From a virus (lineage: Duplodnaviria > Heunggongvirae > Uroviricota > Caudoviricetes), in IMG/VR virus record IMGVR_UViG_3300005836_000011, positions 1 through 64,000 of that record: a DNA stretch of 64,000 bases; one strand, 5' to 3'. The first letter of the stretch is position 1; each line of letters opens with the position of its first letter. Below, piece after piece: positions 4,690-37,260 of the stretch. The notes beneath the pieces are model-generated. The model saw only the letters and a program-made list of their open reading frames with translations. It searched no databases and was not told the origin of the DNA. Made by a program: the position numbers and the translations under genes.

Positions 4690-4700
4690 AAGGAGCAAGA

Positions 4701-10752: not shown

Positions 10753-12354
10753 ATGCGCGTAGGCAGTCTCTTCTCCGGTTGCATGGGCTTCGATCTGGGT
10801 CTTGAAGCGGCCGGCTTTGAGATCGCATGGGCTTGTGAATCCGATGCGGCCTGCCGTCGAGTAATCGCACGACATCGTCCTGACCTTCCCGTATACGAAG
10901 ATGTACGTATGTTCTCCGAAGGCGAGAGCATTAAAGAGGTTCCCTATGTTGATGTAATCGCCGGAGGATTTCCATGCCAGGATCTATCGCAAGCAGGCTC
11001 AGGGGCAGGTCTCGCAGGTGAGCGCTCGGGACTCTGGTTTTCCATGCGAGATGCCATTCGCGCGCTTCAACCCGGATACGTCCTCATCGAAAACGTCCCC
11101 GGACTTGCAACCAAGATGGGTTCCCGCCCAGGAGAATCTGCTCTCGGAACAGTCATCGCTGGTCTGGCCGAAGCAGGGTATGTGGGATCTTGGATTCGCC
11201 TACGAGCTTCCGAAGTCGGCGCCCCCCACAAACGAGAGCGAATCTTCCTTCTTGCAGCTAGAGCCGACATTGACTCCGCGCGAACTGACTCCAGAGACAG
11301 CTTGGGCAGCCGGTCTGTTCGAGGGCGAAGGGTACTTCTGCAATCCAGAACGAAAAAAGCCACGACCTCGGATCATGGCTGGTCTGATCAGTACGGACGA
11401 AGACACGGTGCGCAAGTTCCACAAGATCGTCAGGATGGGGACAGTGGGGGGGCCATTCCCACAACAAGGGATAGGGAAAAAGCCTTATTGGAGATGGAAC
11501 GTATTTGGCCCTGTTGCTGTATCGGACCTGCTGGAGATGCTTTGGCTTGGCCTCGGGGAGCGAAGGCGTGCTACTGCTTCGGTGGTACTCGACCTTGTGA
11601 TTGCTGGCCGTCAGCAACATCCGCTCAAGGGAGACGTTCTCTTGCTGCCAACACCGAATGCATACGAATCGACACCCGCGCAGGATTATGTGGACGAGGT
11701 ACGCAAGAACCTAGACGATCCGCACAAACGCCTGTATCTACCGGGCCGGAAATGGCACGCACAGAGGACGCTATCGAGGATAGCCCCGCTTCTGCCGACA
11801 CCGGGAGCAAACGACTCCACGGGTCCGGAGAACGAGACGAGGAAGAAGCGACAGAAGAAAGGCACGGGGGGACCGGCTCTACGCGATCTGACGCATCTCC
11901 TTCCGACACCGACAGCGGGAGACGCGAACTCGTCGGGGTCGAGGAAGCTTCCGAGTTCGAAAGCGCACGCGGGGACGTCACTGACGGATGCGATCGTGAG
12001 AGAAAAGCTGCTTCCGACACCGACAGTGAACGACGCGAGAAACACCGGAGGCCCATCACAGCACACGAGAAACTCACTTCCGCTGGTCGAGATAGCGAGG
12101 GACGTGAGTGGGGCGTCTATGGACCAGCAATCAAGCGATGGACAGATGCCTTCGGGAGAGAACCCCCAAGACCAACTGATGATCGAGGGAGATTGAACCC
12201 CGCCTTTACGGAATGGATGATGGGATTTCCCGACGGATGGACGGAGGGCGAGAGCAGAACGCAAAGGCTTAAAATGCTTGGTAATGCTGTCGTCGTACAA
12301 GTGGGTGAGGTGGTTGGTCATATGCTCATGGAGGGAGCGATGCGTGGAGAGTGA
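10753..12354 (+). CDS. DNA (cytosine-5)-methyltransferase, Dcm-like, interrupted by a frame-shifted LAGLIDADG-like domain (possible pseudogene or recoded gene)
   Basis: Frame +1 carries motif I (LFSGCMGFDLGL), IV (GFPCQDLSQAG), ENV (LIENVPGL) and VIII (HKRERIFLLAAR), ending at about 11262. Frame +2 (11267-12100) carries a LAGLIDADG-like block and four LLPTP-x-A-x-D TRD repeats. Frame +1 resumes at about 12100 with motifs IX/X (WGVYGPAIKRW...RLNPAFTEWMMGFPDGW, GNAVV). Confidence 0.7.
   Translation: MRVGSLFSGCMGFDLGLEAAGFEIAWACESDAACRRVIARHRPDLPVYEDVRMFSEGESIKEVPYVDVIAGGFPCQDLSQAGSGAGLAGERSGLWFSMRDAIRALQPGYVLIENVPGLATKMGSRPGESALGTVIAGLAEAGYVGSWIRLRASEVGAPHKRERIFLLAARADIDSARTDSRDSLGSRSVRGRRVLLQSRTKKATTSDHGWSDQYGRRHGAQVPQDRQDGDSGGAIPTTRDREKALLEMERIWPCCCIGPAGDALAWPRGAKACYCFGGTRPCDCWPSATSAQGRRSLAANTECIRIDTRAGLCGRGTQEPRRSAQTPVSTGPEMARTEDAIEDSPASADTGSKRLHGSGERDEEEATEERHGGTGSTRSDASPSDTDSGRRELVGVEEASEFESARGDVTDGCDRERKAASDTDSERREKHRRPITAHEKLTSAGRDSEGREWGVYGPAIKRWTDAFGREPPRPTDDRGRLNPAFTEWMMGFPDGWTEGESRTQRLKMLGNAVVVQVGEVVGHMLMEGAMRGE
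11252..11600 (+). mobile_element. LAGLIDADG homing-endonuclease-like domain embedded in the methyltransferase gene, in frame +2
   Basis: TPRELTPETAWAAGLFEGEGYF...DEDTVRKFHKIVRMGTV...YWRWNVFGPVAVSDLLEMLWLGLGERRR is colinear with the free-standing genes at 17226 and 36670 (revcomp). It begins 5 nt after methyltransferase motif VIII, with no ATG (possible TTG at 11270). Confidence 0.6.
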
Positions 12355-12595
12355 ATACGAGATCAGAACCGCTGCCTATGAGGCGGTTGCAAACGGAGAG
12401 GCGGAGGTCGTTGGAGAAGAGGACGGCGAACCCGTGTTCAAGCTCACAGAAGCAGGTCGCACGCGTGCAGAAGAAATCATCGACGCTGCTATTAGACGCT
12501 GGGGTCACGAAGCTCCGGAGCAGCTAGCCAACGCGCTTGGTGTCTCTATCGAGATCGGCGAGGAACTGGTGGCGCTGAGAGAAGGTACAATCTAG
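12344..12595 (+). CDS. hypothetical protein (HTH-like C-terminus)
   Basis: GTG 12344 overlaps the methyltransferase stop. Same frame as ORF track 12278-12595. Confidence 0.4.
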   Translation: MESEYEIRTAAYEAVANGEAEVVGEEDGEPVFKLTEAGRTRAEEIIDAAIRRWGHEAPEQLANALGVSIEIGEELVALREGTI

Positions 12596-12597
12596 TC

Positions 12598-12927
12598 ATG
12601 ACCGCTATGTGTGAGCGTTGCGGTATGGATGCGCCAGCTCCTAATGACGACTGGTGTAAGGATTGCATCTTGGAGGTGGAGATAATCTTGGCCGAAATGG
12701 AGGAACGCCAAGAGCCAGACTTTCGCTGGCGAGCGCTCGGTAATAACGGGAAGTACACGTTCGAGGATCTTGAGATGCGAGTCGCTGAATACGAGGATGA
12801 ATACGGACTACCCTCTGATGCGCTCCTCGAGATGCATCGGGATGACCGCGCTCCCGATGATCTTACGAGCTTCGATCGTCATGTATGGCTAAGCCTCTAT
12901 CGAGAGATGCTGGAGCATAAGCAATGA
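12598..12927 (+). CDS. hypothetical protein with N-terminal Zn-ribbon (CERCG...CKDC)
   Basis: ORF track. Confidence 0.45.
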   Translation: MTAMCERCGMDAPAPNDDWCKDCILEVEIILAEMEERQEPDFRWRALGNNGKYTFEDLEMRVAEYEDEYGLPSDALLEMHRDDRAPDDLTSFDRHVWLSLYREMLEHKQ

Positions 12928-12991
12928 CTAAATTCCTCTTAGGGATTGGCGTCGCGTCCGTCGCCCTTATCAGTACTGGCATCGCGGTGGT

Positions 12992-13231
12992 TTGGCGTGG
13001 CCTTCAGTGGAAAGCGTGACAGAACAGAAATACGAATACGCCTACCATTGGAAAAACACACCAGAGCGCGAGAAGTTGTTTGGCAAGCGCTGTCGTGTAG
13101 TTACGATGGGCGGAGGGTTGCGCACCGTGCTCATCGAGTTCGAGGATGGAAACAGGATGGTCGTCTCACAACGCGCTATCAGGAGGGCAGATGGCGGCCG
13201 GCTCGGAGCAAATAAGCAAGAAATGGATTGA
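12992..13231 (+). CDS. hypothetical protein
   Basis: ORF track (TTG start); RCRVVTMGGGLRTVLIEFEDGNRMVVSQRAIRR reads as a real protein. Confidence 0.4.
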   Translation: MAWPSVESVTEQKYEYAYHWKNTPEREKLFGKRCRVVTMGGGLRTVLIEFEDGNRMVVSQRAIRRADGGRLGANKQEMD

Positions 13232-13421
13232 GGGCGCGGGGCGAATCTGCTGTAAATGCGGAGTCCAGATCACGAACATGGCAAAGCAGGTAGGTGAAGT
13301 GCGCACGCGCTATGGGTCGAAAAAGCATCTCCAACGAGAGATCGTCTGCATGGACTGCATGGCCGCAAGAAGTGCTGCGCTCGTGAAAGAAACACGCGCG
13401 CGCCTGGGACTTCCTCAGTGA
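13190..13421 (+). CDS. Zn-ribbon protein
   Basis: ATG 13190 after 'aggagggcag'. CCKCG...CMDC. Confidence 0.45.
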
Positions 13422-13696
13422 TAGTTCGTGTGCGTTTCATCGGCGGTCCGTTCGATGGACTAGCGCAAGGTTGGAATGTTCAACGCGCGCTTCCCGAGAG
13501 GCTAAGAATGTCTTACCGACTTGCCGATGCTCGGGGCGGCGTACGTATGGAAGTTACCGATCCTTCCGCCTGCGGCGCTCTGCTCTCCCATGAGCGTGAG
13601 TCGGATGAAGTCGTCTACCGCCAGCGTGAACTTGGAGAGTATTACTTCGATCCTATTTCCGATGACTTTGAGGTTATGGCAATTGGCTCAGCCTGA
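13418..13696 (+). CDS. hypothetical protein
   Basis: ORF track; GTGA overlap with the previous gene. Confidence 0.45.
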   Translation: MIVRVRFIGGPFDGLAQGWNVQRALPERLRMSYRLADARGGVRMEVTDPSACGALLSHERESDEVVYRQRELGEYYFDPISDDFEVMAIGSA

Positions 13697-14024
13697 TCCC
13701 AAACCACCACGCGTAGTTCGAAACAGGGAACTTCTGCGCCTCCTACACGGTCGCTGGAGAGAATGCGCTCTCTGCCACACAACCGCCAATCTGTCCCTCC
13801 ATCACATCCACAAACACCCCAGAGATGATGTGAAGGGAAATCTGGTAATGCTCTGCGGGGACGGCGTCCAGGGCTGTCACGGACTCATAGAGAGCAACGA
13901 CGCGCCCACTGTGAGGCGCCTGATGCAATACATCATGGATTCGCGCCCCGACACTATGGCATACCTCATGGTGAGATTCGGTCCGGTATCTGCAACGGAC
14001 TGGATCAGGCGCCAAATGTCCTGA
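13686..14024 (+). CDS. HNH endonuclease
   Basis: C-terminal part of ORF 13521-14024: CALCHTTANLSLHHIHKHPRDDVKGNLVMLCGDGVQGCHGLIE. The N-terminal 55 aa of the listed ORF are low-complexity. TTG near 13686 is the likely start. Confidence 0.6.
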   Translation, partial: AQPDPKPPRVVRNRELLRLLHGRWRECALCHTTANLSLHHIHKHPRDDVKGNLVMLCGDGVQGCHGLIESNDAPTVRRLMQYIMDSRPDTMAYLMVRFGPVSATDWIRRQMS

Positions 14025-14055
14025 GTGCACCCTAGGCTTTCAGTAGAGCTATGTC

Positions 14056-14274
14056 ATGGCCGTAAAACCTAAGAAGCCTGAGAAGGCCGTAAAGGAGTTC
14101 GATGAGTTCGAGCGCTTGACGCGCTGGCGCTTCCAGGCCCTTCTTCGAATCGGCCTCGCTCCCGATCAGGCGGTGACTCTTATCGAAACGGCCGACGTTG
14201 TCCACGCTGCGCAGGACCTCGCTGACCGGGGATGCCCTCCGGCGATCATCGCCTCGATTTTGCAGGGAGATTAG
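14056..14274 (+). CDS. hypothetical protein
   Basis: ORF track. Confidence 0.45.
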   Translation: MAVKPKKPEKAVKEFDEFERLTRWRFQALLRIGLAPDQAVTLIETADVVHAAQDLADRGCPPAIIASILQGD

Positions 14275-14313
14275 TCCTCGTGTCCGCTTGTAGCTAGTAG
14301 TATTCTTGCCATC

Positions 14314-14679
14314 TTGGAATACGACAGACGTCTTTGCAAGTGCCATGATCTCCCTATGTACAAGAATGGAGTCTCACCCACCGGGCGGCAAAGATACCGA
14401 TGCTCCGTTCAAGAGGTAATTAGGTGGGCGGAGCGTTACCGATCAGATTCGATATGGCGAGAGAAAGTTCGTTCCCGTAGGGAAAAAAACAGGCAGGCGA
14501 GACGCGCCGATGGGTTTTGTGCCGATTGCGGTAACAAGAGACTTTCCGACTGGTATTGCTGGGAGTGTCTCAATAGAAGAGACTTCGGCAAGATCGACAA
14601 GGAGGCACTTAAGTGGCAAGACTCTCAGACCACACTCTCCGAGATGCCCAACACGCTGCTCGTTCAGCTATCCGGGTAG
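14314..14679 (+). CDS. double Zn-ribbon protein (InsA/IS1-type transposase-like zinc ribbon)
   Basis: CKCHDLPMYKNGVSPTGRQRYRCSV resembles the C..C...KNG...G.QRY.C ribbon of IS-family transposases. Second ribbon CADCGN...CWEC. No transposase catalytic domain is present. Confidence 0.4.
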   Translation: MEYDRRLCKCHDLPMYKNGVSPTGRQRYRCSVQEVIRWAERYRSDSIWREKVRSRREKNRQARRADGFCADCGNKRLSDWYCWECLNRRDFGKIDKEALKWQDSQTTLSEMPNTLLVQLSG

Positions 14680-14702
14680 AGGTATCTCGCTACATAAGGA
14701 GG

Positions 14703-14864
14703 ATGGATGAGCTGGCGTTCGCTCACATCAAGTCCTGCATCGAGCGAGGAGAAGCCGTCGACGGAACCGAGCTCGGGCGAGAAGCTGGCACCCTTGCCAT
14801 TTCTACCTACATCGCCCCCGGTGAGCCACACGCGGCTATCGACGCTCCCGGAAATTCCTCCTGA
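14703..14864 (+). CDS. small hypothetical protein (53 aa)
   Basis: ATG 14703 with a strong RBS AAGGAGG. MDELAFAHIKSCIERGEAVDG... Confidence 0.4.
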   Translation: MDELAFAHIKSCIERGEAVDGTELGREAGTLAISTYIAPGEPHAAIDAPGNSS

Positions 14865-15423
14865 ATCAGTTACTAAGATCCTAGACTGGGACTGCGAAAC
14901 AATTGCTGCTGGTTTCGCTGATCCAGATTGGGTTCCCCAGAAGATCACCTGTGTAGCTTGGTCTTGGATTGGCTCTGATCAGATAGAAGCTCGTATCTCC
15001 ACATCTGAAGGATTGTTCTCCCAGCCCAGGAAGCGCTATGAGATGCTCGAGCCACTCCTACAAGCCATCGACGAAGCCGATATGGTAACCGGACACAATC
15101 TCCTTCGCTTCGACCTGCCGGTGCTTAATTCAGAATGCCTTCGACTAGGGTTTCCTTCCCTAAGAGGGATTCTCGTCCAAGACACAATGCGACTGGTTAG
15201 AACGAAAGGATTCAAGAAGGGTCAGGACAACATTGCATCTCTAGTCAAAGTGCCGATCAACAAGCTTTCATTGTCCTGGCAGCAATGGCAGGATGCTTAC
15301 GAGGAGCCGGGTTGGGAGACGGTGATTGAACGTTGCAAGAGTGATATAGCGAGTCACAAACTCATGCGCCAGGAAATGTTGGAACGCGGGTGGCTGAAAT
15401 CTCCGATCAAATGGAATCCATGA
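14821..15423 (+). CDS. DEDD-family 3'-5' exonuclease (DnaQ/RNase T-like)
   Basis: Exo I ILDWDCETIAAG, Exo II MVTGHNLLRFDLPVL, and His-containing Exo III near SDIASHKLM. The N-terminal 55 aa of listed ORF 14707-15423 are Ser/Pro low-complexity. GTG 14821 is proposed as the start. Confidence 0.65.
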   Translation: MSHTRLSTLPEIPPESVTKILDWDCETIAAGFADPDWVPQKITCVAWSWIGSDQIEARISTSEGLFSQPRKRYEMLEPLLQAIDEADMVTGHNLLRFDLPVLNSECLRLGFPSLRGILVQDTMRLVRTKGFKKGQDNIASLVKVPINKLSLSWQQWQDAYEEPGWETVIERCKSDIASHKLMRQEMLERGWLKSPIKWNP

Positions 15424-15716
15424 ACGAGATCGACCACGTCATCTTGGACGCCAAGCTCAAGCGCCATGAGGAGTGGACACCTAAGGCCGTCGAGATGATG
15501 ATTGCTTGGCTGCACGAGCACCCTGATGAACTTATCGCCATGGCTCGTGGCCGGCATGTGTGGGGGCACTTCAGATTCGGTGACCGTAATTACGCAGAGT
15601 ACGATCAGGATCGTCTGATCGCAGAAGCCGCTGAGGAACTCGCTGACTGCGTGAACTACTTGGCTCTCTACTTGCGCCGTCAGGAAGAAGCAAGGACTAG
15701 AGGAGATCTGCTCTAG
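15419..15716 (+). CDS. hypothetical protein
   Basis: ATG 15419 overlaps the exonuclease TGA (ATGA). ORF track 15390-15716. Confidence 0.45.
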
Positions 15717-15724
15717 GTTCCTAG
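15713..15724 (+). promoter_or_regulatory. CTAGGTTCCTAG 12-mer copy
   Basis: Exact copy overlapping the stop codon of the 15419 gene. Confidence 0.5.
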
Positions 15725-15776
15725 CGCTTTGGTTAGACCGAAGTTTTCTGTAGGCTTTCAATACTTACCTACAGCC

Positions 15777-15800
15777 AGGAAGGGGCTTTTGGTCCCCTTC
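15777..15800 (+). other. GC-rich hairpin (ggaagggg / ccccttcc)
   Basis: 8-bp stem with an 8-nt loop. No T tail on either strand. Confidence 0.3.
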
Positions 15801-15870
15801 CGTCCGAGCGTCGACAGGTTCGGCGCAGAGCGAGTAAGGAGGAACGCGTATCCGAGTTGGCATACTCGTT

Positions 15871-16542
15871 TTGTTTGCAATCGCAGTAGTAGTAGTATCT
15901 ATCGCAGTGACCAATTTCACGACAGCTTCGGGCGCGGCGTCCACATCATCGACGAGTGGCCTGCCAAGCGTCGCGCCCGTACATTCGGAGCGGGCGACGG
16001 TTCGTAAGCTCGCAAGGGCCACGACGGGTACCCGCGTGCGAACGGCCCGCTCCGGTTCATGTAAGAGCGCCCGCAAGGGCCTCACCTACTACCTACGCCA
16101 GGAAGCTCTCTGGCGCTACAAGATGGGGGCAGGAGTGTCCCGTGCGACGCGGGTATCGCCAGGAGAGGCGAGCACCTGCCCCCGTATTCGCTATCTCGCG
16201 AAGAAGTGGAAGGGCAAAGCAGCATCAGCGAGGGTTCGTTACCAACGCTGGCATGACTATCACTGGGCCTGGTCGAAGTGGCTTCCTGGTGAATGGCGAG
16301 CACGCTCTCGCTGTGAACTTGGGTATGACCTTCAGCCACGTTCGTGGCGTTCCAACGTTTTCACCAGAAATGGGAACTTCCAGGGCTTCGTAAACTTCTA
16401 CAACGGCACTTGGGATTCTTACCGTCAGTCGGGATTCCCGTCCGAGGCGTACCTCGCTACTCCGCGCCAGCAATACGTAGTTGCTGTCGCGGTCGCAAAT
16501 GACGTCGGTCTTGGTGCATGGCAGAGTTGTGCCTCACCGTAA
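15871..16542 (+). CDS. secreted or membrane-anchored Trp-rich protein (moron-like)
   Basis: N-terminal hydrophobic MFAIAVVVVSIAVTNF, then a basic, Trp-rich domain. Flanked by 12-mer copies, with its own downstream terminator. Confidence 0.5.
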   Translation: MFAIAVVVVSIAVTNFTTASGAASTSSTSGLPSVAPVHSERATVRKLARATTGTRVRTARSGSCKSARKGLTYYLRQEALWRYKMGAGVSRATRVSPGEASTCPRIRYLAKKWKGKAASARVRYQRWHDYHWAWSKWLPGEWRARSRCELGYDLQPRSWRSNVFTRNGNFQGFVNFYNGTWDSYRQSGFPSEAYLATPRQQYVVAVAVANDVGLGAWQSCASP

Positions 16543-16583
16543 TCCACTAGGTCAGCACCGCGGGTTGAAGCCCCGCGCACCAT

Positions 16584-16730
16584 ATGAGTAAGCACGACCG
16601 AGCACGGCAAGAGAAGGACCAACGTAATGCGCTCTACGCGGAAAAGTACCGCCAGCGCAAATGCCATCAATGCGGACACAAGAGTAGTCGCCGTGGAAAG
16701 TGCATTTTGTGCGGCGGAGAAATGAGGTGA
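16584..16730 (+). CDS. small Zn-ribbon protein (48 aa)
   Basis: ATG 16584. CHQCGH...CILCGG. Below the ORF-track cutoff. Confidence 0.35.
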   Translation: MSKHDRARQEKDQRNALYAEKYRQRKCHQCGHKSSRRGKCILCGGEMR

Positions 16731-16779
16731 TTGCCTCTGAAGCCTTACAAGTCTGACTTGCAAAAGGCATTAGAGTGAC

Positions 16780-16822
16780 AAAGCGGGGAGAGCCAACATC
16801 GGCTTTCCCCGCTTTTTGTCGT
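16780..16822 (+). terminator. rho-independent terminator
   Basis: aaagcggggagagcc, loop aacatc, ggctttccccgcttt, then ttgtc. Confidence 0.6.
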
Positions 16823-16823
16823 T

Positions 16824-16835
16824 CTAGGTTCCTAG
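16824..16835 (+). promoter_or_regulatory. CTAGGTTCCTAG 12-mer copy
   Basis: Exact copy directly after the terminator. Its second CTAG supplies the stop of minus-strand gene 16832-17191. Confidence 0.5.
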
Positions 16836-17191
16836 ATCGCTCCGCCGTTCAGCTTGTCCTTCGTACCTGCGAACTGGTAGACGAAGCCAGTGGCGACAAT
16901 GGCAGTTGCAAGAGCTGTCAGCTGTTCAGCTCGACTGACCGTGTTGTCATCAAGCGCAATGACGAGTGAGCCGATGCCAGCACTCAGGAACGCCATGATT
17001 GCTTTGATCGTAGGAGCAGCTGGTCCATTCTCCGACAACCACACCATGCCACCCGAGCCGAGCACAACGCCTGCGGCAATGAGCCAACTCTGGGTGGAGA
17101 TATCGCCGAAATCAGTCGCCCCGGTACCGAGCGCTACAACGAGCGCGCCAAGCGCCGAAACAACAACGGCCAAGATCGCTTTTGGATACAC
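16832..17191 (-). CDS. holin-like multi-TM membrane protein
   Basis: GTG start with RBS AAGGAGG (reverse complement of 17198-17204); three or four hydrophobic helices. Lies downstream of the lysin genes on the minus strand. Confidence 0.5.
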   Translation of the reverse strand: MYPKAILAVVVSALGALVVALGTGATDFGDISTQSWLIAAGVVLGSGGMVWLSENGPAAPTIKAIMAFLSAGIGSLVIALDDNTVSRAEQLTALATAIVATGFVYQFAGTKDKLNGGAI

Positions 17192-17225
17192 TACAAAACC
17201 TCCTTGCTATAGGGTGTGATGGACA

Positions 17226-17615
17226 ATGATACATCAGACCGATAGAGAATTACTAGCATGGGCAGCTGGTCTGTTTGAAGGCGAGGGGCATATTAAGCAT
17301 CGCCGTTATAATAGAAGCAGCCGACCGGGTGAAACTGCAATGCAGCGTGGCCTGACGCTCACAATGGCTGACGAGGATGTCGTGCGACGCTTCCATGAAA
17401 TTGTTGGTGTTGGGAGCGTTAATTTCTCTAAACGTGCGAGGCCACACTGGAGTGACCAATGGAGATGGGACTGTACAAGCTGGCCAGATGTAAGAACTCT
17501 TCTCCATCAATTTCTACCCTACCTTGGTAAGCGAAGAACTCTTAAGGCTCAGGAATTGTTGGCTGACCCAGCTCGCACATATACTAAGCGCAAAGTTACA
17601 ACGCGCGAAAGATGA
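17226..17615 (+). CDS. LAGLIDADG-family homing endonuclease (single-motif type), free-standing
   Basis: RELLAWAAGLFEGEGHI matches a LAGLIDADG motif. Plus-strand gene sits between minus-strand lysis genes. Confidence 0.7.
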   Translation: MIHQTDRELLAWAAGLFEGEGHIKHRRYNRSSRPGETAMQRGLTLTMADEDVVRRFHEIVGVGSVNFSKRARPHWSDQWRWDCTSWPDVRTLLHQFLPYLGKRRTLKAQELLADPARTYTKRKVTTRER

Positions 17616-17681
17616 GGATCACGAGTAGGATCACCAGCAGCAAGCCGATGATCCCACCCCCGATCAAGACATCTGCGATCA

Positions 17682-17921
17682 TTAGGAAACCGAAACCGTC
17701 CCAGAGTCGATGACCGTACCGTCCGCGGCGCGAATCTCGATAACCGAGTCGCCTGCGAAATCAGCCGGATAGAACAGGCCGGCTTCGCCGCTATTGGCTT
17801 GCGGGGCCTTGTTATGCACGTCGCCATCTTCGCCCGTGGCGTAGACGGTGATCTCTGAAGAGTCAGCTCCATCCCAGAGGATCGAGACGCCCTTGCGTAG
17901 AGAGTTAAGTCGAACTGCCAT
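17682..17921 (-). CDS. hypothetical protein
   Basis: ATG 17921 with RBS AAGGAG (reverse complement of 17928-17933). In ORF track 17682-17951. Confidence 0.4.
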   Translation of the reverse strand: MAVRLNSLRKGVSILWDGADSSEITVYATGEDGDVHNKAPQANSGEAGLFYPADFAGDSVIEIRAADGTVIDSGTVSVS

Positions 17922-18028
17922 GTGATTCTCCTTGTTAGCTTTCAACTCCATTGTAGTTGGACGTGGTGTGAGCTGGATTTATTCCTAAATGAATAGCCGA
18001 TCTTGCGCCTATCCTCTCGCCCCTAGAG

Positions 18029-18409
18029 GTGATGTCCACATTACGGAAACTAGAGACGGAGAAGAACCGCTCGAGAGTCATGAGGAAATCGGCAACTCGG
18101 CCGAGGGAAAATATCACTCTCCGAGAGCTAGAGATCATCGCGCTGATCGCGCTCGGCTACTCCAACTTGGAGATCGGGGTAATCCTCTACATCTCCCACG
18201 AGACAGTCAAAACGCATGTCCGACATGGACTTGCAAAGATGAGGGCGCGGACGAGAGCAGAACTCGTCTACCGCGCAATAACGGACGGGTGGCTCGCAAC
18301 GCCCTCACAGGAACCGACGAAGATCCCTTCCCAAAACTCCACCCAGATGTACGTAGAAGAGTGGAACGGTATACCGGAACAACTCTTGAGAAATCTTATG
18401 AAGGACTGA
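18029..18409 (+). CDS. LuxR/GerE-family HTH transcriptional regulator
   Basis: LTLRELEIIALIALGYSNLEIGVILYISHETVKTHVRHGLAKM matches a GerE-type HTH. Confidence 0.7.
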   Translation: MMSTLRKLETEKNRSRVMRKSATRPRENITLRELEIIALIALGYSNLEIGVILYISHETVKTHVRHGLAKMRARTRAELVYRAITDGWLATPSQEPTKIPSQNSTQMYVEEWNGIPEQLLRNLMKD

Positions 18410-18508
18410 CCGAGATGCTTCTGCGCGGTTTGCGAGCAGTTTGGAGAGAGGAAGCTCGAGCGGACAGGCCTGCCCTTCCTGCCCGCTCACACCGAAAGCG
18501 GGGGTTCT

Positions 18509-19228
18509 CTAAGGGGCGGTAGTAGTTAACGGCTGCGTCTGTGCGGTGATCGGACCTGGAGCGCTCGGAGGCGTCTTGTCACTTGCTCCTGCCAACGGTG
18601 GCGGACTGGCGGTGGGAATCGCCATTGGCCCATTGCCGAGCGCGCAGGCATAGGTCTGCACAGCAGCGAACAACGCCGCCCCGAACTGCGTCTTCATATC
18701 CTGGACGAGACCGGTCCCGTTGCCGCACAACGGAGTTGCCATGTGCCCGGATACGCAGACCTTAAGCGGTGGCCCAGTCGGATTGGCGGGGTCGGTGATG
18801 CTACCCATAACGCACATGCGCGCAAGTTCGCCAGGGTTCGCCTTCGCCCAGTTCTTATACAGCGTGGCATTGACGAGCGAATCCCAGAAGGAATAACGGA
18901 TCATGCCTGCGGCTGCATCACAGGGATCAGCCTTCGGTGGAGTGACCACGGAGCACTTTCCGAGATACTGCGTGTCAGCGTCATACGTTCCGGTATATGT
19001 CTGGATATTTAGAGCACGCAAGGCAGGGTTCGTGGTGTCAGGCGCGTAGTAGGTAGTGCCGTTAGCGACGCTTTGTACCGTCATCTGATCCGCCTGGAAA
19101 CCAGCTGCGGATGTGCTGTAGGTTGTGCTGGAGGAGTACGGATTTCCATTCAGCCAAATCGCTCCTCCAAGGCCGACCGCAAAGAGCACGACAGCTCCGA
19201 TAACGATGTATGCGGTTTTGCGTGTCAT
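18509..19228 (-). CDS. membrane-anchored extracytoplasmic Cys-containing protein (lysis-associated?)
   Basis: N-terminal TM YIVIGAVVLFAVGLGGAIW and a Pro-rich C-terminus. Adjacent to the endolysin genes. Confidence 0.5.
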   Translation of the reverse strand: MTRKTAYIVIGAVVLFAVGLGGAIWLNGNPYSSSTTYSTSAAGFQADQMTVQSVANGTTYYAPDTTNPALRALNIQTYTGTYDADTQYLGKCSVVTPPKADPCDAAAGMIRYSFWDSLVNATLYKNWAKANPGELARMCVMGSITDPANPTGPPLKVCVSGHMATPLCGNGTGLVQDMKTQFGAALFAAVQTYACALGNGPMAIPTASPPPLAGASDKTPPSAPGPITAQTQPLTTTAP

Positions 19229-20073
19229 ATCGCTAGCTCCGTAGAGACGATAGCGTCTGCTGGGATAGACGGATCGAGTCCTGGTAGCAGTTTGTCGAAG
19301 TCAGAAACTGTTATCCGGAAGTATCCACCGAGACCCCAGGAACTACCCCATGAATTGACGGCTAGATACGACTCGGTTGGCTCTTCCGGTTGGTGCGCAA
19401 TCAGCACATAGAAATGGCCACCTGCTATTGCTCCAGTGGGTCGCACATATCCAGTGGGACTTGGATTGAACATATCGTTCGTCCAATCGGTCCCGACCAT
19501 AACTGGACCCCGCGTTCGAAGCCAGTCAGTAATCGCATCTGTGCTGTAGGCAAATGCATAGGTCGAGAGTCTCCCGCGCGCTTTAAGCGCCTTGGCGACC
19601 CAGCGTGACTCGACTCCGTCCTCGTTACGTCCCCCCATTCCGATCTTCACCGCTTCGTAGTAGAGGTCGTGGGCATCAGTGGCCGTATAGTGATCATCGA
19701 CAGGAAGGGTGTTCCCCCAATGGCATCCACCAAATCCGCCGCAATGATTGGTGTTCTTTTGATCGAGCAAAGGATCATTCATCGCCCAATTCACGTTCTG
19801 CGGCACTGGAATAGGGGGGCTAAGTAGCGCCCGCGCAGAATCGAAGGCGTTCAATGCCTTCCACCAATGCGTGGTGGTCGGATCAGCGTACTTCGTAGCC
19901 GCCCACTTCTGGAACGTTACGGTGGTTTTCTTTAGCTCAGATACGCCAGCCTCGATCAGGAGACTGGGATCGGTTATCTCGAGCTTGTCCGTAACAAAGT
20001 TGTCCGCGCGGAAGTCGCGGTCATCCGGAGTCGTAGGACGCCGGCCAAGCAGATGTGGACCAATCTCAGCCAT
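19225..20073 (-). CDS. papain-like (C1 family) cysteine peptidase, putative endolysin domain protein
   Basis: NHCGGFGGCHW (catalytic Cys region) and NSWGSSWGLGGYFRI (papain-family C-terminal signature). Confidence 0.65.
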   Translation of the reverse strand: MAEIGPHLLGRRPTTPDDRDFRADNFVTDKLEITDPSLLIEAGVSELKKTTVTFQKWAATKYADPTTTHWWKALNAFDSARALLSPPIPVPQNVNWAMNDPLLDQKNTNHCGGFGGCHWGNTLPVDDHYTATDAHDLYYEAVKIGMGGRNEDGVESRWVAKALKARGRLSTYAFAYSTDAITDWLRTRGPVMVGTDWTNDMFNPSPTGYVRPTGAIAGGHFYVLIAHQPEEPTESYLAVNSWGSSWGLGGYFRITVSDFDKLLPGLDPSIPADAIVSTELAI

Positions 20074-20081
20074 TCTTCTCC

Positions 20082-21340: not shown

Positions 21341-21347
21341 TACCCCC

Positions 21348-21659: not shown

Positions 21660-21687
21660 ATAGATTCAGTCTACGCGCGGCTTAGGT

Positions 21688-24261: not shown

Positions 24262-24264
24262 AGA

Positions 24265-29415: not shown

Positions 29416-29416
29416 G

Positions 29417-29428
29417 CTAGGTTCCTAG
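29417..29428 (+). promoter_or_regulatory. CTAGGTTCCTAG 12-mer copy
   Basis: Exact copy 1 nt upstream of the tape measure ATG (29415-29413). Provides the TAG stop of the G-T extension. Confidence 0.5.
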
Positions 29429-30114: not shown

Positions 30115-30173
30115 CGTTATGCTGCAGTTGCGGTACAGTTTCGTCTATGACTTTCAAGCATTCACCTCATATG

Positions 30174-31444: not shown

Positions 31445-31980
31445 TGCGTCGCATCAAGAGCGGGGGCCTGCACTATCAGTCGCGGCCGATCCAGAGGAGT
31501 TGGATTGAATCCCTTAGACCGTGGACCATTGGATCGCAGAAAGTACCCACCTTTCTTCTTCCCTCGGTAGGGAAATTCTGGCTTGATGATATGCTCATCA
31601 GTTCCGATTTCTAGCCACTTTCCATGCTCAACAGTAGTTCCGACACCTACCTCCACATTCCCTCCCCTACCACCACGCACGATGGGAATGACAGAGGTAA
31701 TGAGAGAAGTCGTGCGCTGATTGAATAGCGCCCCAGCATTAAGTCTCGCCGCAAGTACCATGCGGGCAGCTAGCGCATTTGCGTCACCACGCGCGAATCC
31801 GCGACGAGCGCCCATGCTCGTGCCGGCCAGCGGCGAGGACTGCATGAAAGAACGGATGCCGCTTTCATTCAGAGTGACGCGACTAGATGCCAACTTTTCG
31901 CGCCTGCTTTTGCGCTCCGGGAACGTAGAGGATAGGACGCCGCTGAAGCCCCCTGGGGTTGTACGCATTGAGGAAAGCAT
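31378..31980 (-). CDS. head-tail connector-like protein
   Basis: ORF track. GKWLEIGTDEHIIKPEFPYRGKKKGGYF weakly resembles HK97 gp10-family motifs. Confidence 0.35.
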   Translation of the reverse strand: MLSSMRTTPGGFSGVLSSTFPERKSRREKLASSRVTLNESGIRSFMQSSPLAGTSMGARRGFARGDANALAARMVLAARLNAGALFNQRTTSLITSVIPIVRGGRGGNVEVGVGTTVEHGKWLEIGTDEHIIKPEFPYRGKKKGGYFLRSNGPRSKGFNPTPLDRPRLIVQAPALDATHWMSDAVRSVMPGLPVRVRVLK

Positions 31981-33019: not shown

Positions 33020-33078
33020 CGTTATCAGTCTAAGACCTGATGCGGTCCTTGCTCTAGCAGTAGATTCCTACCGCTTCC

Positions 33079-33789
33079 TTACGGTCGAGCAAAGGCCAAT
33101 CCGCTCCAGGAGAAATAACCACCGGGTGTGAACGCTCGAGCCGTTGTGGTGAGACCGAGATCGAAACGAAATCCTCTCTCCTCTATGACTGGTATCCAAT
33201 AGTCATCTGTCTGGCAATTCACATGGTGATGTCCACCTTGACCAGGAACGGCATGGGTCATCAGGAGCAGTCGGCCCCGCTGGAAGGCGGTGAGATAATT
33301 CTCCATGAACTCGTGCGCGACGTGCTCGACGAACTCGCAGCACCAGACGAGGTCGAAATCACGACCTGGGTCGTAGGGGCCAAGCGTGAAGTCATGTTGT
33401 TGAATCAGCGGGTCATGCGGTGGCAGCCCATCCACTCCATATGCCTCACATCCCAGACTCTTGAAGAAATGCACAGTCTTTCCCGCTCCGCATCCAACGT
33501 CGAGGATTGATCTGACATCACAGGTGTCTCGGAGCCACGTCCACAACTCGGGGTAGTAGCTCAGCGGATCCCCGTCGGGAAAATAGCCCCCGAGCCAAGG
33601 TCGTTCCGAGTCCACAACCTGTCCGTACTCAGAGAGCTCGCTCATGCCGAGAAAACGCCGTAGAACGCCCGACCGGATGCACCGCTTTCGTCGATCTGCG
33701 CCACGAATCCGGAAGAGCCGAGCCATTCCTCTAGCTCGTCCTTGACGAGCATGTGCGGGTGACCTGGATATGGAGGGATGTCGATCCAC
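33079..33789 (-). CDS. class I SAM-dependent methyltransferase
   Basis: Motif I ILDVGCGAGKTVHFF. Real start probably MSELSEYG at about 33645. Confidence 0.6.
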   Translation of the reverse strand: MDRHPSISRSPAHARQGRARGMARLFRIRGADRRKRCIRSGVLRRFLGMSELSEYGQVVDSERPWLGGYFPDGDPLSYYPELWTWLRDTCDVRSILDVGCGAGKTVHFFKSLGCEAYGVDGLPPHDPLIQQHDFTLGPYDPGRDFDLVWCCEFVEHVAHEFMENYLTAFQRGRLLLMTHAVPGQGGHHHVNCQTDDYWIPVIEERGFRFDLGLTTTARAFTPGGYFSWSGLAFARP

Positions 33790-34292
33790 TCGAAGATCCG
33801 AATAGTCGATGCCAACTCACGAGCTCGAGTGATGACGAGGGCAGGATCGGTGACGTGTTGTAGGACGTTGTAGATCCAGGCTTCGTCCAGGGTGTATCCG
33901 GTAATCACCTCGCCGGGCATCTTCCAATACTCAATACCCTCCGCCTCGTATCGTCCCAGCACCCAGGTCGGCCATTCAGCCGGATCAGCCACGATCGCTC
34001 GCCCGCGGTTGACGCACTTGAGCAGCAGACTCACCGGACCGCCACCGATGTCGATGACTGACTTACCACCCAGATCAAACACGGGCGGATGCCCCACGCC
34101 CCACTGGGCATAGAGTCCCATGCGAGCGGCATAGACGAGTTGTTTCTGCTCCTCCTGCAACGTGTTCGCGCAGGTCCCCCACCAGTCGGTCTCATACTCG
34201 CTCACGTGGACCAGCCCTCTCTTATCGCTTGATTGGTGCGCCACAGATAGGGCACATCGGATGGGCAAGCGTTTCTGGGAACTCATGCCCAC
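33642..34292 (-). CDS. SAM-dependent methyltransferase
   Basis: Gly-rich motif VIDIGGGPVSLL. Confidence 0.55.
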   Translation of the reverse strand: MGMSSQKRLPIRCALSVAHQSSDKRGLVHVSEYETDWWGTCANTLQEEQKQLVYAARMGLYAQWGVGHPPVFDLGGKSVIDIGGGPVSLLLKCVNRGRAIVADPAEWPTWVLGRYEAEGIEYWKMPGEVITGYTLDEAWIYNVLQHVTDPALVITRARELASTIRIFEWIDIPPYPGHPHMLVKDELEEWLGSSGFVAQIDESGASGRAFYGVFSA

Positions 34293-34304
34293 GCAGACAG
34301 ACGA

Positions 34305-35435
34305 TTATGCGGACCAACCTTCCCCCCAAAGAGTGTCGAGCTGGTCGAACCAGCGTGTAAACTTTTTCCCGACCGCGTCGAAGCCGTAGCGGTCGATCGC
34401 AGCCTTGCGAATCTTCTTGCGGTCCAGAGTCTCGGCGTACTCGACTGCGGCCACGGCCTGACTCAAGGTACTGAAGCGAGCGCCCACGTCGGGGGTGACG
34501 ATCTCGGTGAATGATCCCCAGTCGCTCGCTACCACAGGGGTTCCGCTCATCATCGCCTCGACCGCGACGCCTCCGAATGGCTCAACGTAGAGCGTCGGAA
34601 CGATTACCGCCGCTGCGTCGGCCATGAGATCGGCGCGATCGGCGAAGCGCACCTCACCAACGTATTCGATCCCCGGCGCCCTGAGAGATACCTCGGGAGC
34701 ATTGATCTCACCCTTCTTCCAAGTTGAGGGACCTGGTCCAGCGACGAGCAGGCGCCTCCCCATGCGCTCGGCGATCGCTGCAGCTACCTGCGGCCCCTTG
34801 CGCAGCACCACGCGACCGATGTAGAGCAGGTAGTCATCGCTCTTTTTGCGCTTGCGCTTCGCAGGGTCATGAAACTGTGTCTGGTCGAAGAAGTTGGGGA
34901 TGACAGAATCGAAGGCCCGCCCGTTGCGAATCTCGCGCATCCCGTAGACGTGGTGCATCCAGGCGTAGCTCTCGAAGGCGCAGAAGGGAGAGAAGATTCC
35001 TTCGTACCCGACTGCCCACTCGACGGTGATCGGATTGATGAACCCAGGGCCACCGATCGCATGAGCGATGGGATGATGCGCCCAGCCAGCGGTAACGCAG
35101 AGATAGTCGCGTGGCTGCACGCGCTCGCGGAGTGCGTCAATCGCCCTAGTGTTCGCCTCGAAGAAGTACGGCTCAGAGGGGAGCCATAGGAACGGACTTC
35201 GTACCGTATCGAAGCCATCCCCAAAGCCCCAGCGATCGCGATCTGCCTTTGTCGTGATGACGACGTGTTCATCAGGCTCGCAGGCGATCTCGTCAGGTCC
35301 ATAGAGGATGACCTTGCAGCCCTGCGCCTGCATCATCGGTACGAACTTCAGAACTTTCATCGAGTACGCGCATGAAGAATCTTTCTCGGTTAGCGTCGTG
35401 TGTGGCAATGCCACAACATGGAGAACGCGAGTCAC
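34305..35435 (-). CDS. GT-B fold glycosyltransferase (GT4/GT1 family)
   Basis: VIVPTLYVEPFGGVAVEAMMSGTPVV is the E-x7-E donor-binding signature of retaining GT4 enzymes. Confidence 0.7.
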   Translation of the reverse strand: MTRVLHVVALPHTTLTEKDSSCAYSMKVLKFVPMMQAQGCKVILYGPDEIACEPDEHVVITTKADRDRWGFGDGFDTVRSPFLWLPSEPYFFEANTRAIDALRERVQPRDYLCVTAGWAHHPIAHAIGGPGFINPITVEWAVGYEGIFSPFCAFESYAWMHHVYGMREIRNGRAFDSVIPNFFDQTQFHDPAKRKRKKSDDYLLYIGRVVLRKGPQVAAAIAERMGRRLLVAGPGPSTWKKGEINAPEVSLRAPGIEYVGEVRFADRADLMADAAAVIVPTLYVEPFGGVAVEAMMSGTPVVASDWGSFTEIVTPDVGARFSTLSQAVAAVEYAETLDRKKIRKAAIDRYGFDAVGKKFTRWFDQLDTLWGEGWSA

Positions 35436-35484
35436 AATTGTGAAGCGTACACATCGGTTCCGACGGTATCTCTAGAATTATTCC

Positions 35485-35892
35485 ATGGGACCGGGAGATC
35501 GTTTCGGTCGCCTCGTTCTTTTGGAGCGAGTCTCAACTGACAAGAATTACAACGTTAAGTGGCGCTGTCACTGCGACTGTGGGCGCGAGACACTTGTGTT
35601 TAGGCAGCACTTACGAAGTGGACGCAGCACGTCATGTGGATGCCGACGTAGCGAGGTAACCTCTGCGCGAAATTGGAAAGGTGACCGAGCGAGTTACAGC
35701 GCTTTGCACAAATGGATCGCGAGTCGCAAGGAGAGGTCGGGAATATGCAGCCATTGTGGGAATAAACGTCGTACACAGTGGGCGAACATCGACCATCGCT
35801 ATCGCCGCGATCTTAGCGATTGGATAGAACTATGTTCACCTTGTCATTGGAAATATGATCAGGCAACCAAGACCATTATTTCCATGGGGTGA
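35485..35892 (+). CDS. HNH endonuclease
   Basis: CHCDCG and CSHCGN Zn clusters, then NIDHRYRRDLSDWIELCSPCH. Opposite strand to its neighbours. Confidence 0.65.
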   Translation: MGPGDRFGRLVLLERVSTDKNYNVKWRCHCDCGRETLVFRQHLRSGRSTSCGCRRSEVTSARNWKGDRASYSALHKWIASRKERSGICSHCGNKRRTQWANIDHRYRRDLSDWIELCSPCHWKYDQATKTIISMG

Positions 35893-36130
35893 TCATCACG
35901 CCAAGATGGACCTGTGCAAACGGGCTCCATCCGCTGATCGTTGCGCTCCTGTCGACCGCAGAGCGGGCAGCGATACACGAATCCAGATCCAGTCTCGAAG
36001 AGGCCGGTCTCGATGAGGGCCTTGGCCGAATCGTCCTCACCGTCGTAGGCTCGTCGTTCGCGCTTGACCAAATACGGCTCCTTATGAGTGGGAAGCCAAA
36101 TAGGAGTTCCCTCGGTATGCCGTAGTTCAG

Positions 36131-36673
36131 TCATTGCCACTCCTCCACTGGGCATGTGATCCCTGAGAGAATACTCTCTCGATCAGCCTCGTATCCATTC
36201 GCGTACTTTCCATTATGCCACTCGATGAGGATCTGCGAGAATCTATCCATGAGGCCGTTCTCGATCAGATGAGGAAGGAGCACATATTCGGCTCCCTCGA
36301 TGTCGACCTTGAGCACGATCCGAGCCTCGGGCAGAGTCCTGACCCAGGCGGAGAAATCGAAGGCCTTGGTCCGTTCTTTCTCGTCGAAGTCGACATGAGT
36401 ACAGTTGCCTTGCAGACAGAGGCCGACCTCAATGTCATCCGTCCAAGCAGCCCTCCGAGCAGTGATGACGGTGGTTCCGAAGACACTGCCGACGGCATCC
36501 GGCAAGCCTGGGTGAGGATCAAAGCCAAAGAGGACGGTCGGTGAGAAGCGCTTGATCAGTGTTTGGATTGAGTCCTCTAGCCGATTTCCTCGCTGATAAC
36601 TACAGCAACCGAGGTCGATGACAATGTCGGTCTCGAGCGACGAGACTGAGTGAACGGCGAGCGCGTTACTCAT
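36131..36673 (-). CDS. FkbM-family methyltransferase
   Basis: IVIDLGCCSY...KVDIEGAEYVLL is diagnostic of the FkbM family. Confidence 0.6.
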   Translation of the reverse strand: MSNALAVHSVSSLETDIVIDLGCCSYQRGNRLEDSIQTLIKRFSPTVLFGFDPHPGLPDAVGSVFGTTVITARRAAWTDDIEVGLCLQGNCTHVDFDEKERTKAFDFSAWVRTLPEARIVLKVDIEGAEYVLLPHLIENGLMDRFSQILIEWHNGKYANGYEADRESILSGITCPVEEWQ

Positions 36674-37260
36674 TGCATCATCTTGTCGTGCTCTGGCAAG
36701 TGACTCGGAGGACCCTGTGGCCCTTTCTTCTTCGCGCGGTGCCGAGCTTGGTACTCACGCATCTTCTCACGGCGGCGGATCTGCTGTTCGGTGAGTCCTT
36801 CGGTGCTGTATCGCGAGTGTCGGCCACAGGTGCATCCTGGGGAGCAGGGCTTCGTGCCTCCGAGTCCCTGGGGTGAAGGCTCTGGACGTTCGTCGAACTT
36901 CTCTCTCGCTATCAGATATTGCTCGCGCTTCGGATCGCAGAGCCAGGGCCAGAGAAGATCAAAAAGAGTATCCACAGCCTTCCCGGAGACCTGATAACTC
37001 CACTGAGGATTCTGGGAGAGCAGATTCTTTGTCGGGATGTATGGACCGTAGATCTTGCCGACCCCCACCGCGCGAACGAAGCGATCAAGAGGTTCTCGCC
37101 TGTTCTGATTCACGCTGGCTCGCAAGTAGATATCGCTGGCTACGCGCTTCCTGCCGTCGTTCTTTCCGTAGCACCCACAGGAGCCTTCTCCGTCCCAGAA
37201 TCCCGCGGCCCAAGCAAGCTCCTCACGATGATATGCCGCCTGTGCGCGTTCATCACCCAC
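36670..37260 (-). CDS. LAGLIDADG-family homing endonuclease, free-standing paralog
   Basis: REELAWAAGFWDGEGSC, LDRFVRAVGVGKIY and QWSYQVSGKAVDTLFDLLWPWL are colinear with the 17226 gene. Confidence 0.65.
   Translation of the reverse strand: MGDERAQAAYHREELAWAAGFWDGEGSCGCYGKNDGRKRVASDIYLRASVNQNRREPLDRFVRAVGVGKIYGPYIPTKNLLSQNPQWSYQVSGKAVDTLFDLLWPWLCDPKREQYLIAREKFDERPEPSPQGLGGTKPCSPGCTCGRHSRYSTEGLTEQQIRRREKMREYQARHRAKKKGPQGPPSHLPEHDKMMQ

Follow-up and report, generated by a model that had tools for sequence, protein, structure and literature searches.

A LAGLIDADG domain inserted in a putative two-frame C5-cytosine methyltransferase gene of a tailed-phage-like genome

The 64,000-nucleotide stretch of DNA analysed here (the window; positions 1 to 64,000 of the virus record IMGVR_UViG_3300005836_000011, Caudoviricetes) carries a C5-cytosine methyltransferase gene in which a second open reading frame (ORF) lies wholly inside the first one, in another frame, and which is interrupted by an inserted LAGLIDADG homing endonuclease (HE) domain, designated HE1, that is open in both frames. 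The outer ORF (alpha, frame 0) holds catalytic motifs I–VIII, IX and X, and the inner one (beta, frame +1) the target recognition domain (TRD), i.e. the specificity domain. Judging from the sequence, it is fairly probable that alpha and beta are two polypeptides of one nested methyltransferase with HE1 as an internal part, their expression and assembly being what we infer, and that the nucleases of this phage genome were gained independently. The seven nuclease genes or domains in question would comprise three small I-CreI-like LAGLIDADG proteins (HE1, HE2 and HE3), presumably homodimeric, and four of HNH type (Table 1). The window is a tailed-phage-like genome with a G+C content of about 55%, carrying a terminase, a lysis-type cluster, a 1564-aa tape-measure gene and a 1600-aa collagen-repeat protein.

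Layout of the nested methyltransferase gene and its insertion

The PF00145 match on alpha covers residues 1–174 plus a C-terminal stretch, the middle of the protein being compositionally odd. Readable in the alpha frame are FPCQD, ENVPGL, PHKRERIF, motif IX RLNPAFTEWMMGFPDGW and motif X GNAV. The beta ORF begins with about 78 N-terminal residues encoded over alpha motifs VI–VIII, continues with the LAGLIDADG insertion and then with a TRD containing four LLPTP repeats, and its stop codon falls inside the conserved RLNP codons of alpha. The TRD of beta is homologous to the variable region that single-chain methyltransferases (P0114, P0071) carry in frame. This order of frames, f for the N domain, f+1 for the TRD and f again for the C domain, recurs outside the window at 23 independent loci from JGI, ENA, NCBI and Logan assemblies, the N domains of which are 37–85% identical to that of the window. 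The two-frame loci are L001, L004–L011, L013–L014, L016–L022, the HE-containing L036–L038, the near-complete L012 and L015, whose contigs contain at most a fragment of the N domain, and L002, with its N domain replaced. Nested-beta ORFs, recognised by the C-terminus ...DQLTIED as a frame-shifted reading of the PTDDRGRL of alpha, make up at least 72 of the best 120 database matches. In the clade of L015–L021, the nested +1 frame includes motif IX (RLNPxFxEWMMGFPxGW), so that at the 3' end motif X alone is back in the frame of alpha; therefore the 3' boundary of the nested ORF has moved in evolution. Nothing relevant to a nested-TRD methyltransferase or to the LLPTP motif was found in the literature.

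Alignment of the DNA with the closest alleles, L001 (N domain 85% identical) and L006 (77%), demonstrated that HE1 is an exact insertion of 390 bp (130 codons); the comparison with endonuclease-free relatives, as proposed in an earlier sequence-only reading of the window, has thus yielded a precise presence/absence difference at this site. The insert is flanked by a 6-bp direct repeat TCTTGC (11250–11255 and 11640–11645), because of which its boundaries are ambiguous by 6 nt. The codons that it interrupts are translated as ...FIVAA... in the alpha frame and as ...LLPTP... in the beta frame, and the uninterrupted junction can be reconstructed. The LAGLIDADG domain fills the whole insert, which comes with neither its own start nor its own stop and is stop-free in the frames of both alpha and beta, and HE1 is therefore an in-frame domain of beta as well as 130 extra residues in the spacer of alpha. 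For comparison, the equivalent frame of the free-standing HE2 and HE3 contains 15 and 7 stops, respectively. The sequence-only reading had taken this copy, placed at 11252–11600, for an embedded gene; it does lie inside the methyltransferase gene, but it extends over the segment given in Table 1, belongs to the +1-frame ORF and not to the frame of the 533-aa ORF, and is not a separate gene.

A related insert, 46–71% identical, occupies the same site in L002, L036, L037 and L038, and both frames are open in all four. In the tree of the N domains, L036–L038 form an HE-containing clade and the window is the sole HE-containing member of an otherwise HE-less clade. Furthermore, the HE identity between distant loci (46–54%) is at least equal to that of the host N and C domains (37–44%). 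The exact indel, the patchy distribution in the tree and the relatively high HE identity support, at the level of sequence comparison, a lateral gain of HE1 at a conserved site, i.e. homing or recombination-mediated spread. When HE1 is compared with the insert of L002, the differences at third positions of the +1 frame reach 0.50 versus 0.21–0.26 at positions 1 and 2; as judged from these substitutions, HE1 is under purifying selection in that frame. An intein or intron nature of HE1 was rejected, the insert being too small and associated with neither a Hint domain nor an Rfam intron. A candidate pseudo-palindromic target at the junction, seen by eye as a 5-bp outer inverted repeat in L001 only and not in the window, was dropped as probably due to chance.

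Two of the alleles compared show irregularities. The closest endonuclease-less allele, L001 (4690–4955), has an additional frameshift in catalytic motif IV (GGFP|CQD), representing either an error of the Logan assembly or a decaying copy. In L002 (5290–7079) the methyltransferase N domain is gone and a minus-strand gene stands in its place, only the last about 24 residues of motif VIII being left; the ORF with HE and TRD (P0010, with its own ATG) and the frame-0 ORF up to motif X are both intact. The TRD of L002 is unrelated to that of the window, yet its HE (71%) and C domain (73%) are similar, which suggests that the TRD has been exchanged as a cassette.

The explanation that we favour would run as follows. 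Frame 0 would yield alpha, with motifs I–VIII, a spacer unconserved as protein but kept stop-free, and motifs IX–X. Frame +1 would yield beta, starting about 70–80 codons upstream of where motif VIII ends, with this stretch coding in both frames, passing through the LLPTP-repeat TRD and ending in the motif-IX region of alpha. Both would be made as separate polypeptides and then assembled into an active enzyme. The HE1 module is inserted exactly at the junction of motif VIII and the first LLPTP repeat, the most constrained DNA of the gene; it would be translated both as an internal domain of beta and as spacer of alpha, and would be selected for openness in both frames.

Selection signatures in the two frames

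From the N domain to motif X, frame 0 is free of stops in all loci. With the expected number of stops obtained by permutation of synonymous codons of the +1-frame ORF, the nested part of 20 distinct loci contains 0 frame-0 stops, 57.1 being expected; the third frame has 0–13 stops per locus. For the window alone, there are 0 stops versus 9.0 expected in frame 0 between 11252 and 12097 (P<5e-5), and in the HE1 segment 0 versus 4.7 (P 0.002). Natural controls are provided by the phages PrincessTrina and Samy, in which alpha ends after motif VIII and the alpha frame accumulates 11 and 3 stops, respectively, across the TRD.

Substitutions with respect to L001 and L006 are distributed differently along the gene. 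In the N and C parts they fall on third positions of frame 0 (about 0.65), whereas in the TRD region they fall on third positions of the +1 frame, equal to frame-0 first positions (0.47–0.50 versus 0.07–0.17). Only the +1 frame is therefore conserved as protein in the TRD region. In the overlap, i.e. the last about 80 codons of the N domain, the total divergence is halved and the third-position variability of alpha decreases from about 0.65 to 0.19–0.33. The +1-frame stops in the N domain of alpha, counted in 19 loci, agree with expectation in its first part (33 versus 35), in contrast to the last 70 codons with 1 stop versus 22.6 expected. Many loci have an ATG or GTG preceded by AGGAG 6–12 nt upstream, located 63–90 codons before the junction and often being the first codon after a +1-frame stop. 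The beta ORF, nested in alpha in another frame, shows coding-type selection.

The LAGLIDADG family and the other nucleases of the window

All three LAGLIDADG copies reported in the sequence-only reading are real and situated at or near the positions given there. The colinear motifs quoted for them were recovered in the alignment of HE1, HE2 and HE3, and pairwise BLASTP gave 39% identity over 116 aa for HE1 and HE2 (E 5e-11), 32% over 100 aa for HE1 and HE3 (E 1e-5) and 31% over 59 aa for HE2 and HE3 (E 0.014); the alignment check proposed for the three proteins thus returned colinear sequences with 31–39% identity. All three copies contain W-A-A-G-L/F-F/W-E/D-G-E-G as their motif, and in an alignment of 60 family members W12, A14, G15, G19, E20 and G21 are invariant. 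HE2, for which 435 homologues were found, some of them with PF00961, was modelled by AlphaFold2 (AF2) with a pLDDT of 93.7 and the order of secondary structures H-E-E-H-E-E-H-H. A Foldseek search of this model against PDB retrieved I-CvuI, I-CreI and I-MsoI at the top (probability 1.0, TM 0.65–0.70; I-CvuI with E 1e-7 and TM 0.70), and all 50 top matches were LAGLIDADG enzymes. The fold of HE1 and HE3 was assigned via their alignment to HE2. Based on the invariant motif, the phrog_5046 matches and the fold of the HE2 model, the three copies are classified from sequence and model as single-motif LAGLIDADG proteins of the I-CreI type. The family phrog_5046 itself is labelled 'HNH endonuclease'; since its members here have the LAGLIDADG fold, this is a mislabel, and one that will spread through annotation pipelines.

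With I-CreI, I-CvuI and I-MsoI the copies share the alpha-beta-beta-alpha-beta-beta-alpha fold (in the HE2 model), a single LAGLIDADG-type helix ending in a conserved acidic residue, found in GEG of the window copies, and a core of about 110–130 residues. They are, however, only 16–22% identical to these enzymes in sequence. The genes for I-CreI, I-CvuI and I-MsoI reside in group I introns within organellar or algal rDNA, whereas the window copies have neither intron nor intein; HE2 and HE3 are phage genes standing on their own and HE1 is a domain in frame with its host protein, all with predicted nuclease activity. The closest relatives lie in other genomes, HE1 being 71% identical to its counterpart in L002, HE2 55% to P0122 and HE3 50–56% to that of L030. 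The sequence-only reading had regarded the three as paralogous; with mutual identities of only 31–39% and closer relatives elsewhere for each of them, they do not behave as intragenomic copies, and independent acquisition is more likely than duplication inside the genome. As far as sequence comparison tells, they are one family of old relatives and not recent duplicates.

Table 1. Positions of the two-frame methyltransferase gene and of the nuclease genes or domains in the window.
Feature	Position	Strand	Support
Alpha ORF, C5-cytosine methyltransferase, frame 0, 533 aa	10753–12354	+	PF00145 E 9e-47
Alpha, motifs I–VIII	about 10753–11275	+	
Alpha, non-conserved stop-free spacer	about 11276–12099	+	
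Alpha, motifs IX–X	about 12100–12351	+	
Beta ORF, frame +1, 392 aa, wholly inside alpha	11018–12196	+	homology to TRD of P0114, P0071
HE1, LAGLIDADG domain	11256–11645	+	phrog_5046 E 3e-11; DNA alignment with L001, L006
HE2, free-standing 129-aa LAGLIDADG ORF	17226–17615	+	phrog_5046 E 3e-21; AF2/Foldseek
HE3, free-standing 196-aa LAGLIDADG ORF	36670–37260	-	phrog_5046 E 2e-12
HNH-type endonuclease gene	1706–2122 (likely start ATG 1724)	+	phrog_2340 'endonuclease' E 3e-21
HNH endonuclease gene	9765–10211 (likely start ATG 9786)	+	Pfam HNH_3, 25.6 bits
Probable HNH endonuclease gene	13521–14024	+	PHROG HNH families E 3.6e-6
Probable HNH endonuclease gene	35485–35892	+ (opposite to neighbours)	phrog_374 E 1.5e-15

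Four genes of the window belong to the HNH type, the one at 9765 by a Pfam HNH_3 score above the cut-off of 24.8 bits, in addition to matches to several PHROG HNH families, and the other three by PHROG matches together with motifs of the HH...N...CH type. The motif is readable as SIQAHHDDY...WLCVSCHGKTH in the product of 1706–2122 and as CALCH...LHHIH...NLVMLC...CH in that of 13521–14024, the true start of the latter being probably internal, at about 13662–13700. Of the five HNH genes listed in the sequence-only reading these four hold; the fifth, 57060–57422 on the minus strand, showed no Pfam match, no PHROG match and no HNH motif. Similarly, the statement that several nucleases run opposite to their neighbours applies to HE2 and the HNH gene at 35485 only. 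Seven nucleases in 64 kb is a high load, as had been remarked, but it lies inside the range documented for phages (PMC10448857), and the count by itself is ordinary. The description as intron-less agrees with an Rfam scan of the whole window at the gathering score, in which nothing matched, including group I and group II introns, and with a Pfam scan of the window without any Hint or intein domain.

HE2 is flanked by the minus-strand genes 16832–17191 (holin-like) and 17682–17951, and its G+C content at third codon positions is 0.41 versus 0.51–0.60 in the phage structural genes checked. All relatives of either neighbour sit in different surroundings, and no insertion site could be read from them. 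The product of 17682–17951, 79 aa from the likely start, has 84 metagenome homologues at 58–79% identity and one that is 100% identical, and what lies downstream of this gene is different in every one of the contigs inspected (terminase-small-like, DUF1360 and others). The gene apparently marks a boundary between modules, and HE2 sits there.

HE3 and its neighbours share one strand, and there is a 4-nt overlap between HE3 and the beginning of the gene downstream. An orthologue, 50–56% identical, is found at the same position in the viral contigs L030 and L031, the flanking genes being 76–93% identical. The sequence-only reading had held that identical positions in related phages would speak against mobility. 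Such a position is indeed seen for HE3, yet the DNA similarity collapses over its body: blastn similarity to L030 and L031 is 79–82% on either side and is lost only over window positions 36643–37243, and the third-position divergence is 0.57 for HE3 versus 0.38–0.43 for the flanking genes. The pattern fits, as a sequence signature, a cassette replacement. The C-terminal extension of HE3 (70 aa) is basic and Cys-rich, with CSPGCTCGRH in HE3 and CPPDCQCGRH in L030 and, behind it, the strongly basic helix REYQxRHRAK; neither HE1 nor HE2 has this stretch, which may be an accessory DNA-binding extension. The HNH gene at 35485 lies inside a 435-bp block (35424–35858) that is missing from the syntenic L030 and L031, and in L030 the genes flanking the site abut each other. 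With respect to the recent homing claimed in the sequence-only reading, mobility is thus indicated by the 390-bp indel of HE1 and by the absence of this block from relatives, but not by the position of HE3.

At 4615–5100, L030 has an extra gene for a 161-aa S-adenosylmethionine (SAM)-methyltransferase-like protein between the homologues of 36131–36673 and 35859–36155, which the window does not have; it is a further indel in the 3-kb stretch that holds HE3 and the HNH gene at 35485. Genes of glycosyltransferase (GT) type surround these two nucleases (GT1 34305–35435, FkbM-like 36131–36673 and GT2-like 37634–38365, all on the minus strand), and more GT2-looking ORFs were noticed, by eye only, near 54.6–55.9 kb within 54166–56706 (minus strand). 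Their products may glycosylate the virion or the collagen-like fibre. The latter is represented by a minus-strand ORF of 1600 aa (40378–45180) consisting of collagen triple-helix repeats (Pfam Collagen, E 6e-158), and it is because of this ORF that the G+C content jumps to 0.61–0.67, with a strong negative GC skew, at 38–46 kb. The early region of the phage contains a gene for an SPFH/Band 7 family protein (4701–5624, plus strand, E 7e-25).

In phages, nuclease genes are found at mosaic boundaries, and the seg and mob genes of T4 and the homing endonuclease gene (HEG) islands of ICP1 are free-standing cases (PMC10448857). As in these, the window has many nuclease genes from different families, some of them on the opposite strand, with a presence/absence polymorphism (the HNH gene at 35485) and a break in similarity exactly at the nuclease gene (HE3). 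HE2, HE3 and the HNH genes are ordinary free-standing genes of homing endonuclease type at module boundaries. None of the nucleases of the window resides in an intein, and one of them, HE1, is a non-spliced in-frame insertion.

Relatives of the genome as a whole were sparse. A megablast search with 10 kb of the window gave no match among GenBank phages, viral contigs scanned with the TRD, a tail gene and the tape measure gave no relatives, and those scanned with the endolysin-like gene gave only non-syntenic matches; a scan of genome contigs returned one locus, which was spurious. The JGI contig L026 (7566 bp, sample 3300001372) is 100% identical to window positions 11893–19458.

Alternative interpretations, known split methyltransferases and implications

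Several observations weigh against the favoured reading. At locus L013 a +1-frame stop lies 30 codons before the junction, and the beta start in the window, GTG 11018, is preceded by a weak AGG only. The AF2 model of the full 392-aa beta reached a pLDDT of 58.8, with moderate confidence only at residues 10–70 and with the HE part mis-modelled owing to the alignment. When the N-terminal segment of beta was compared with the in-frame segment following motif VIII in single-chain enzymes, hhalign gave a weak match, in the right place (E 0.012, probability 3.5%), and much of the conservation of this segment is, by comparison done by hand, a frame-shifted shadow of alpha motifs VI–VIII (ENVPGL, DLAxAGY, GAPHxRxR). 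A spacer of 150–360 unconserved residues, as in alpha, is unusual for an enzyme. As for the nucleases, HE2 and HE3 do not reach the gathering score of Pfam LAGLIDADG_1 (PF00961; 19.0 and 15.5 bits versus 23.1) and HE1 has no match to it. No endonuclease-less allele of HE2 was seen among the holin homologues L027–L029 or the contigs L039–L042 with the 79-aa neighbour, all of them differently flanked, and HE3 shows no presence/absence polymorphism with respect to L030 and L031.

The layout might instead reflect a single polypeptide whose synthesis involves programmed ribosomal frameshifting twice, in the +1 direction behind motif VIII and in the -1 direction ahead of motif IX or X, with HE1 as an extra domain. 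The single-chain P0114 and P0071 do have the same TRD in frame, cultured relatives have the TRD and motifs IX–X in one frame, and the transition from the N domain to the TRD is tight, with few codons of overlap. Double frameshifting, however, needs neither a stop-free frame 0 over 150–360 codons, where 0 stops stand against 57 expected, nor a stop-free +1 frame over the 70 codons upstream of the junction (1 versus 22.6), and relatives have a conserved start with AGGAG right after a +1-frame stop. At the 3' end, one clade returns to frame 0 ahead of motif IX and another only behind it, ahead of motif X, which argues against a single conserved recoding site, and no canonical slippery heptamer was seen at 12085–12110. 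Since the two stop-free stretches and the variable 3' return are left unexplained, a doubly frameshifted chain is less likely than two polypeptides, and we regard it as decidedly improbable. It is hardly credible that the frame changes arose from errors of sequencing or assembly, or belong to a pseudogene decaying after disruption by the endonuclease. The additional frameshift of L001 and the lost N domain of L002 would suit such a view, but the same +1/-1 layout recurs in the window and 23 loci from four sources, contig L026 reproduces the window sequence perfectly over its 7566 bp, and strong frame-specific selection signatures are present in both frames. An artefact is excluded because many independent assemblies share the layout.

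A different question is whether HE1 and its relatives in beta have been domesticated, so that the specificity subunit would use the LAGLIDADG fold for dimerisation or DNA binding and the fold would no longer act as a mobile nuclease. The fusion in frame to the TRD without an own start or stop, the purifying selection on HE1, the retention of the insert throughout the L036–L038 clade, the long-term adaptation to openness in the frame of alpha and the persistence of the HE–TRD ORF in L002, though the catalytic N domain is gone, all agree with domestication. Yet the metal-binding acidic residue of GEG is invariant, as in the free-standing family members, the closest alleles of the window are without the insert and its boundaries are precise, and between distant loci the HE is no less identical than the host domains are, a pattern that lateral transfer would be expected to leave. 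Domestication is thus considered unlikely, and the favoured reading retains HE1 as a predicted nuclease module within a two-polypeptide enzyme.

Among known split methyltransferases, M.EcoHK31I is a C5-methyltransferase of two polypeptides, with beta encoded inside the alpha gene in another frame (PMC2836561); its beta holds motif IX only and its alpha holds the TRD (PMC3404938). M.AquI is split in the variable region into subunits with motifs I–VIII and IX–X (PMC3404938). The window gene resembles that of M.EcoHK31I in that the large-subunit gene encloses the complete second ORF, in another frame, and in that the large subunit carries motifs I–VIII and X; moreover, in L015–L021 the nested ORF also carries motif IX. 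The distribution of domains differs from that of M.EcoHK31I: in the window beta has the TRD and alpha has motif IX, and in L015–L021 beta has the TRD together with motif IX. In the window family the nested ORF is the whole TRD (150–360 codons), the overlapping stretch of alpha is an unconserved spacer kept only stop-free, and beta overlaps about 70 codons of catalytic motifs VI–VIII of alpha.

An M.AquI-like split occurs in Streptomyces phage Samy (L043, 33023–34364, genes 49/50) and Arthrobacter phage PrincessTrina (L044, 52100–54197, gp81/gp82). The window gene shares with them the break straight after motif VIII with a +1 change into an LLPTP-repeat TRD, and the same N-terminal segment of beta overlapping the end of alpha; with M.AquI it shares the break in the variable region. 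In Samy and PrincessTrina, however, alpha stops after motif VIII, and motifs IX–X are in the frame of beta with the TRD, whereas in the window clade motifs IX–X are back in the frame of alpha, which must stay open over the full length of the nested ORF. As annotated, the Samy beta begins at MVVH... and leaves out both an LFPTP repeat located upstream and the conserved N-terminal segment of beta; translation probably starts about 100 codons earlier, in an overlap with gene 49. With its entire specificity domain as the nested product, the window family would be a novel form among the two-polypeptide C5-methyltransferases represented by M.AquI and M.EcoHK31I.

Taken further, HE1 might exemplify an undescribed lifestyle of homing endonucleases, intron- and intein-less, targeting a doubly coding, hyper-conserved junction and surviving by being translatable in two frames. 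A beta fused to the HE might then use its TRD both for methylation, together with alpha, and for cleavage, and would represent a minimal self-protecting, restriction-modification-like or addiction module in one overlapping gene. We consider this joint interpretation rather unlikely.

On the reading preferred here, there would be a large, mostly metagenomic clade of phage C5-methyltransferases in which the specificity domain is an overlapping gene inside the gene of the catalytic subunit, extending the single-case precedent of M.EcoHK31I to a whole family. Gene callers render the nested ORFs as domain-less 'hypothetical proteins', or the locus as one long methyltransferase with a meaningless middle, and current annotation therefore misses nested two-frame methyltransferases. 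The arrangement suggests that specificity subunits might be swappable as cassettes. It would also provide a natural case in which phage DNA codes in two frames over a long distance, about 70 codons in the catalytic domain plus 150–360 codons in the spacer, under measurable selection, and a selfish endonuclease module adapted to a two-frame host gene would illustrate an unusual constraint on a mobile element.

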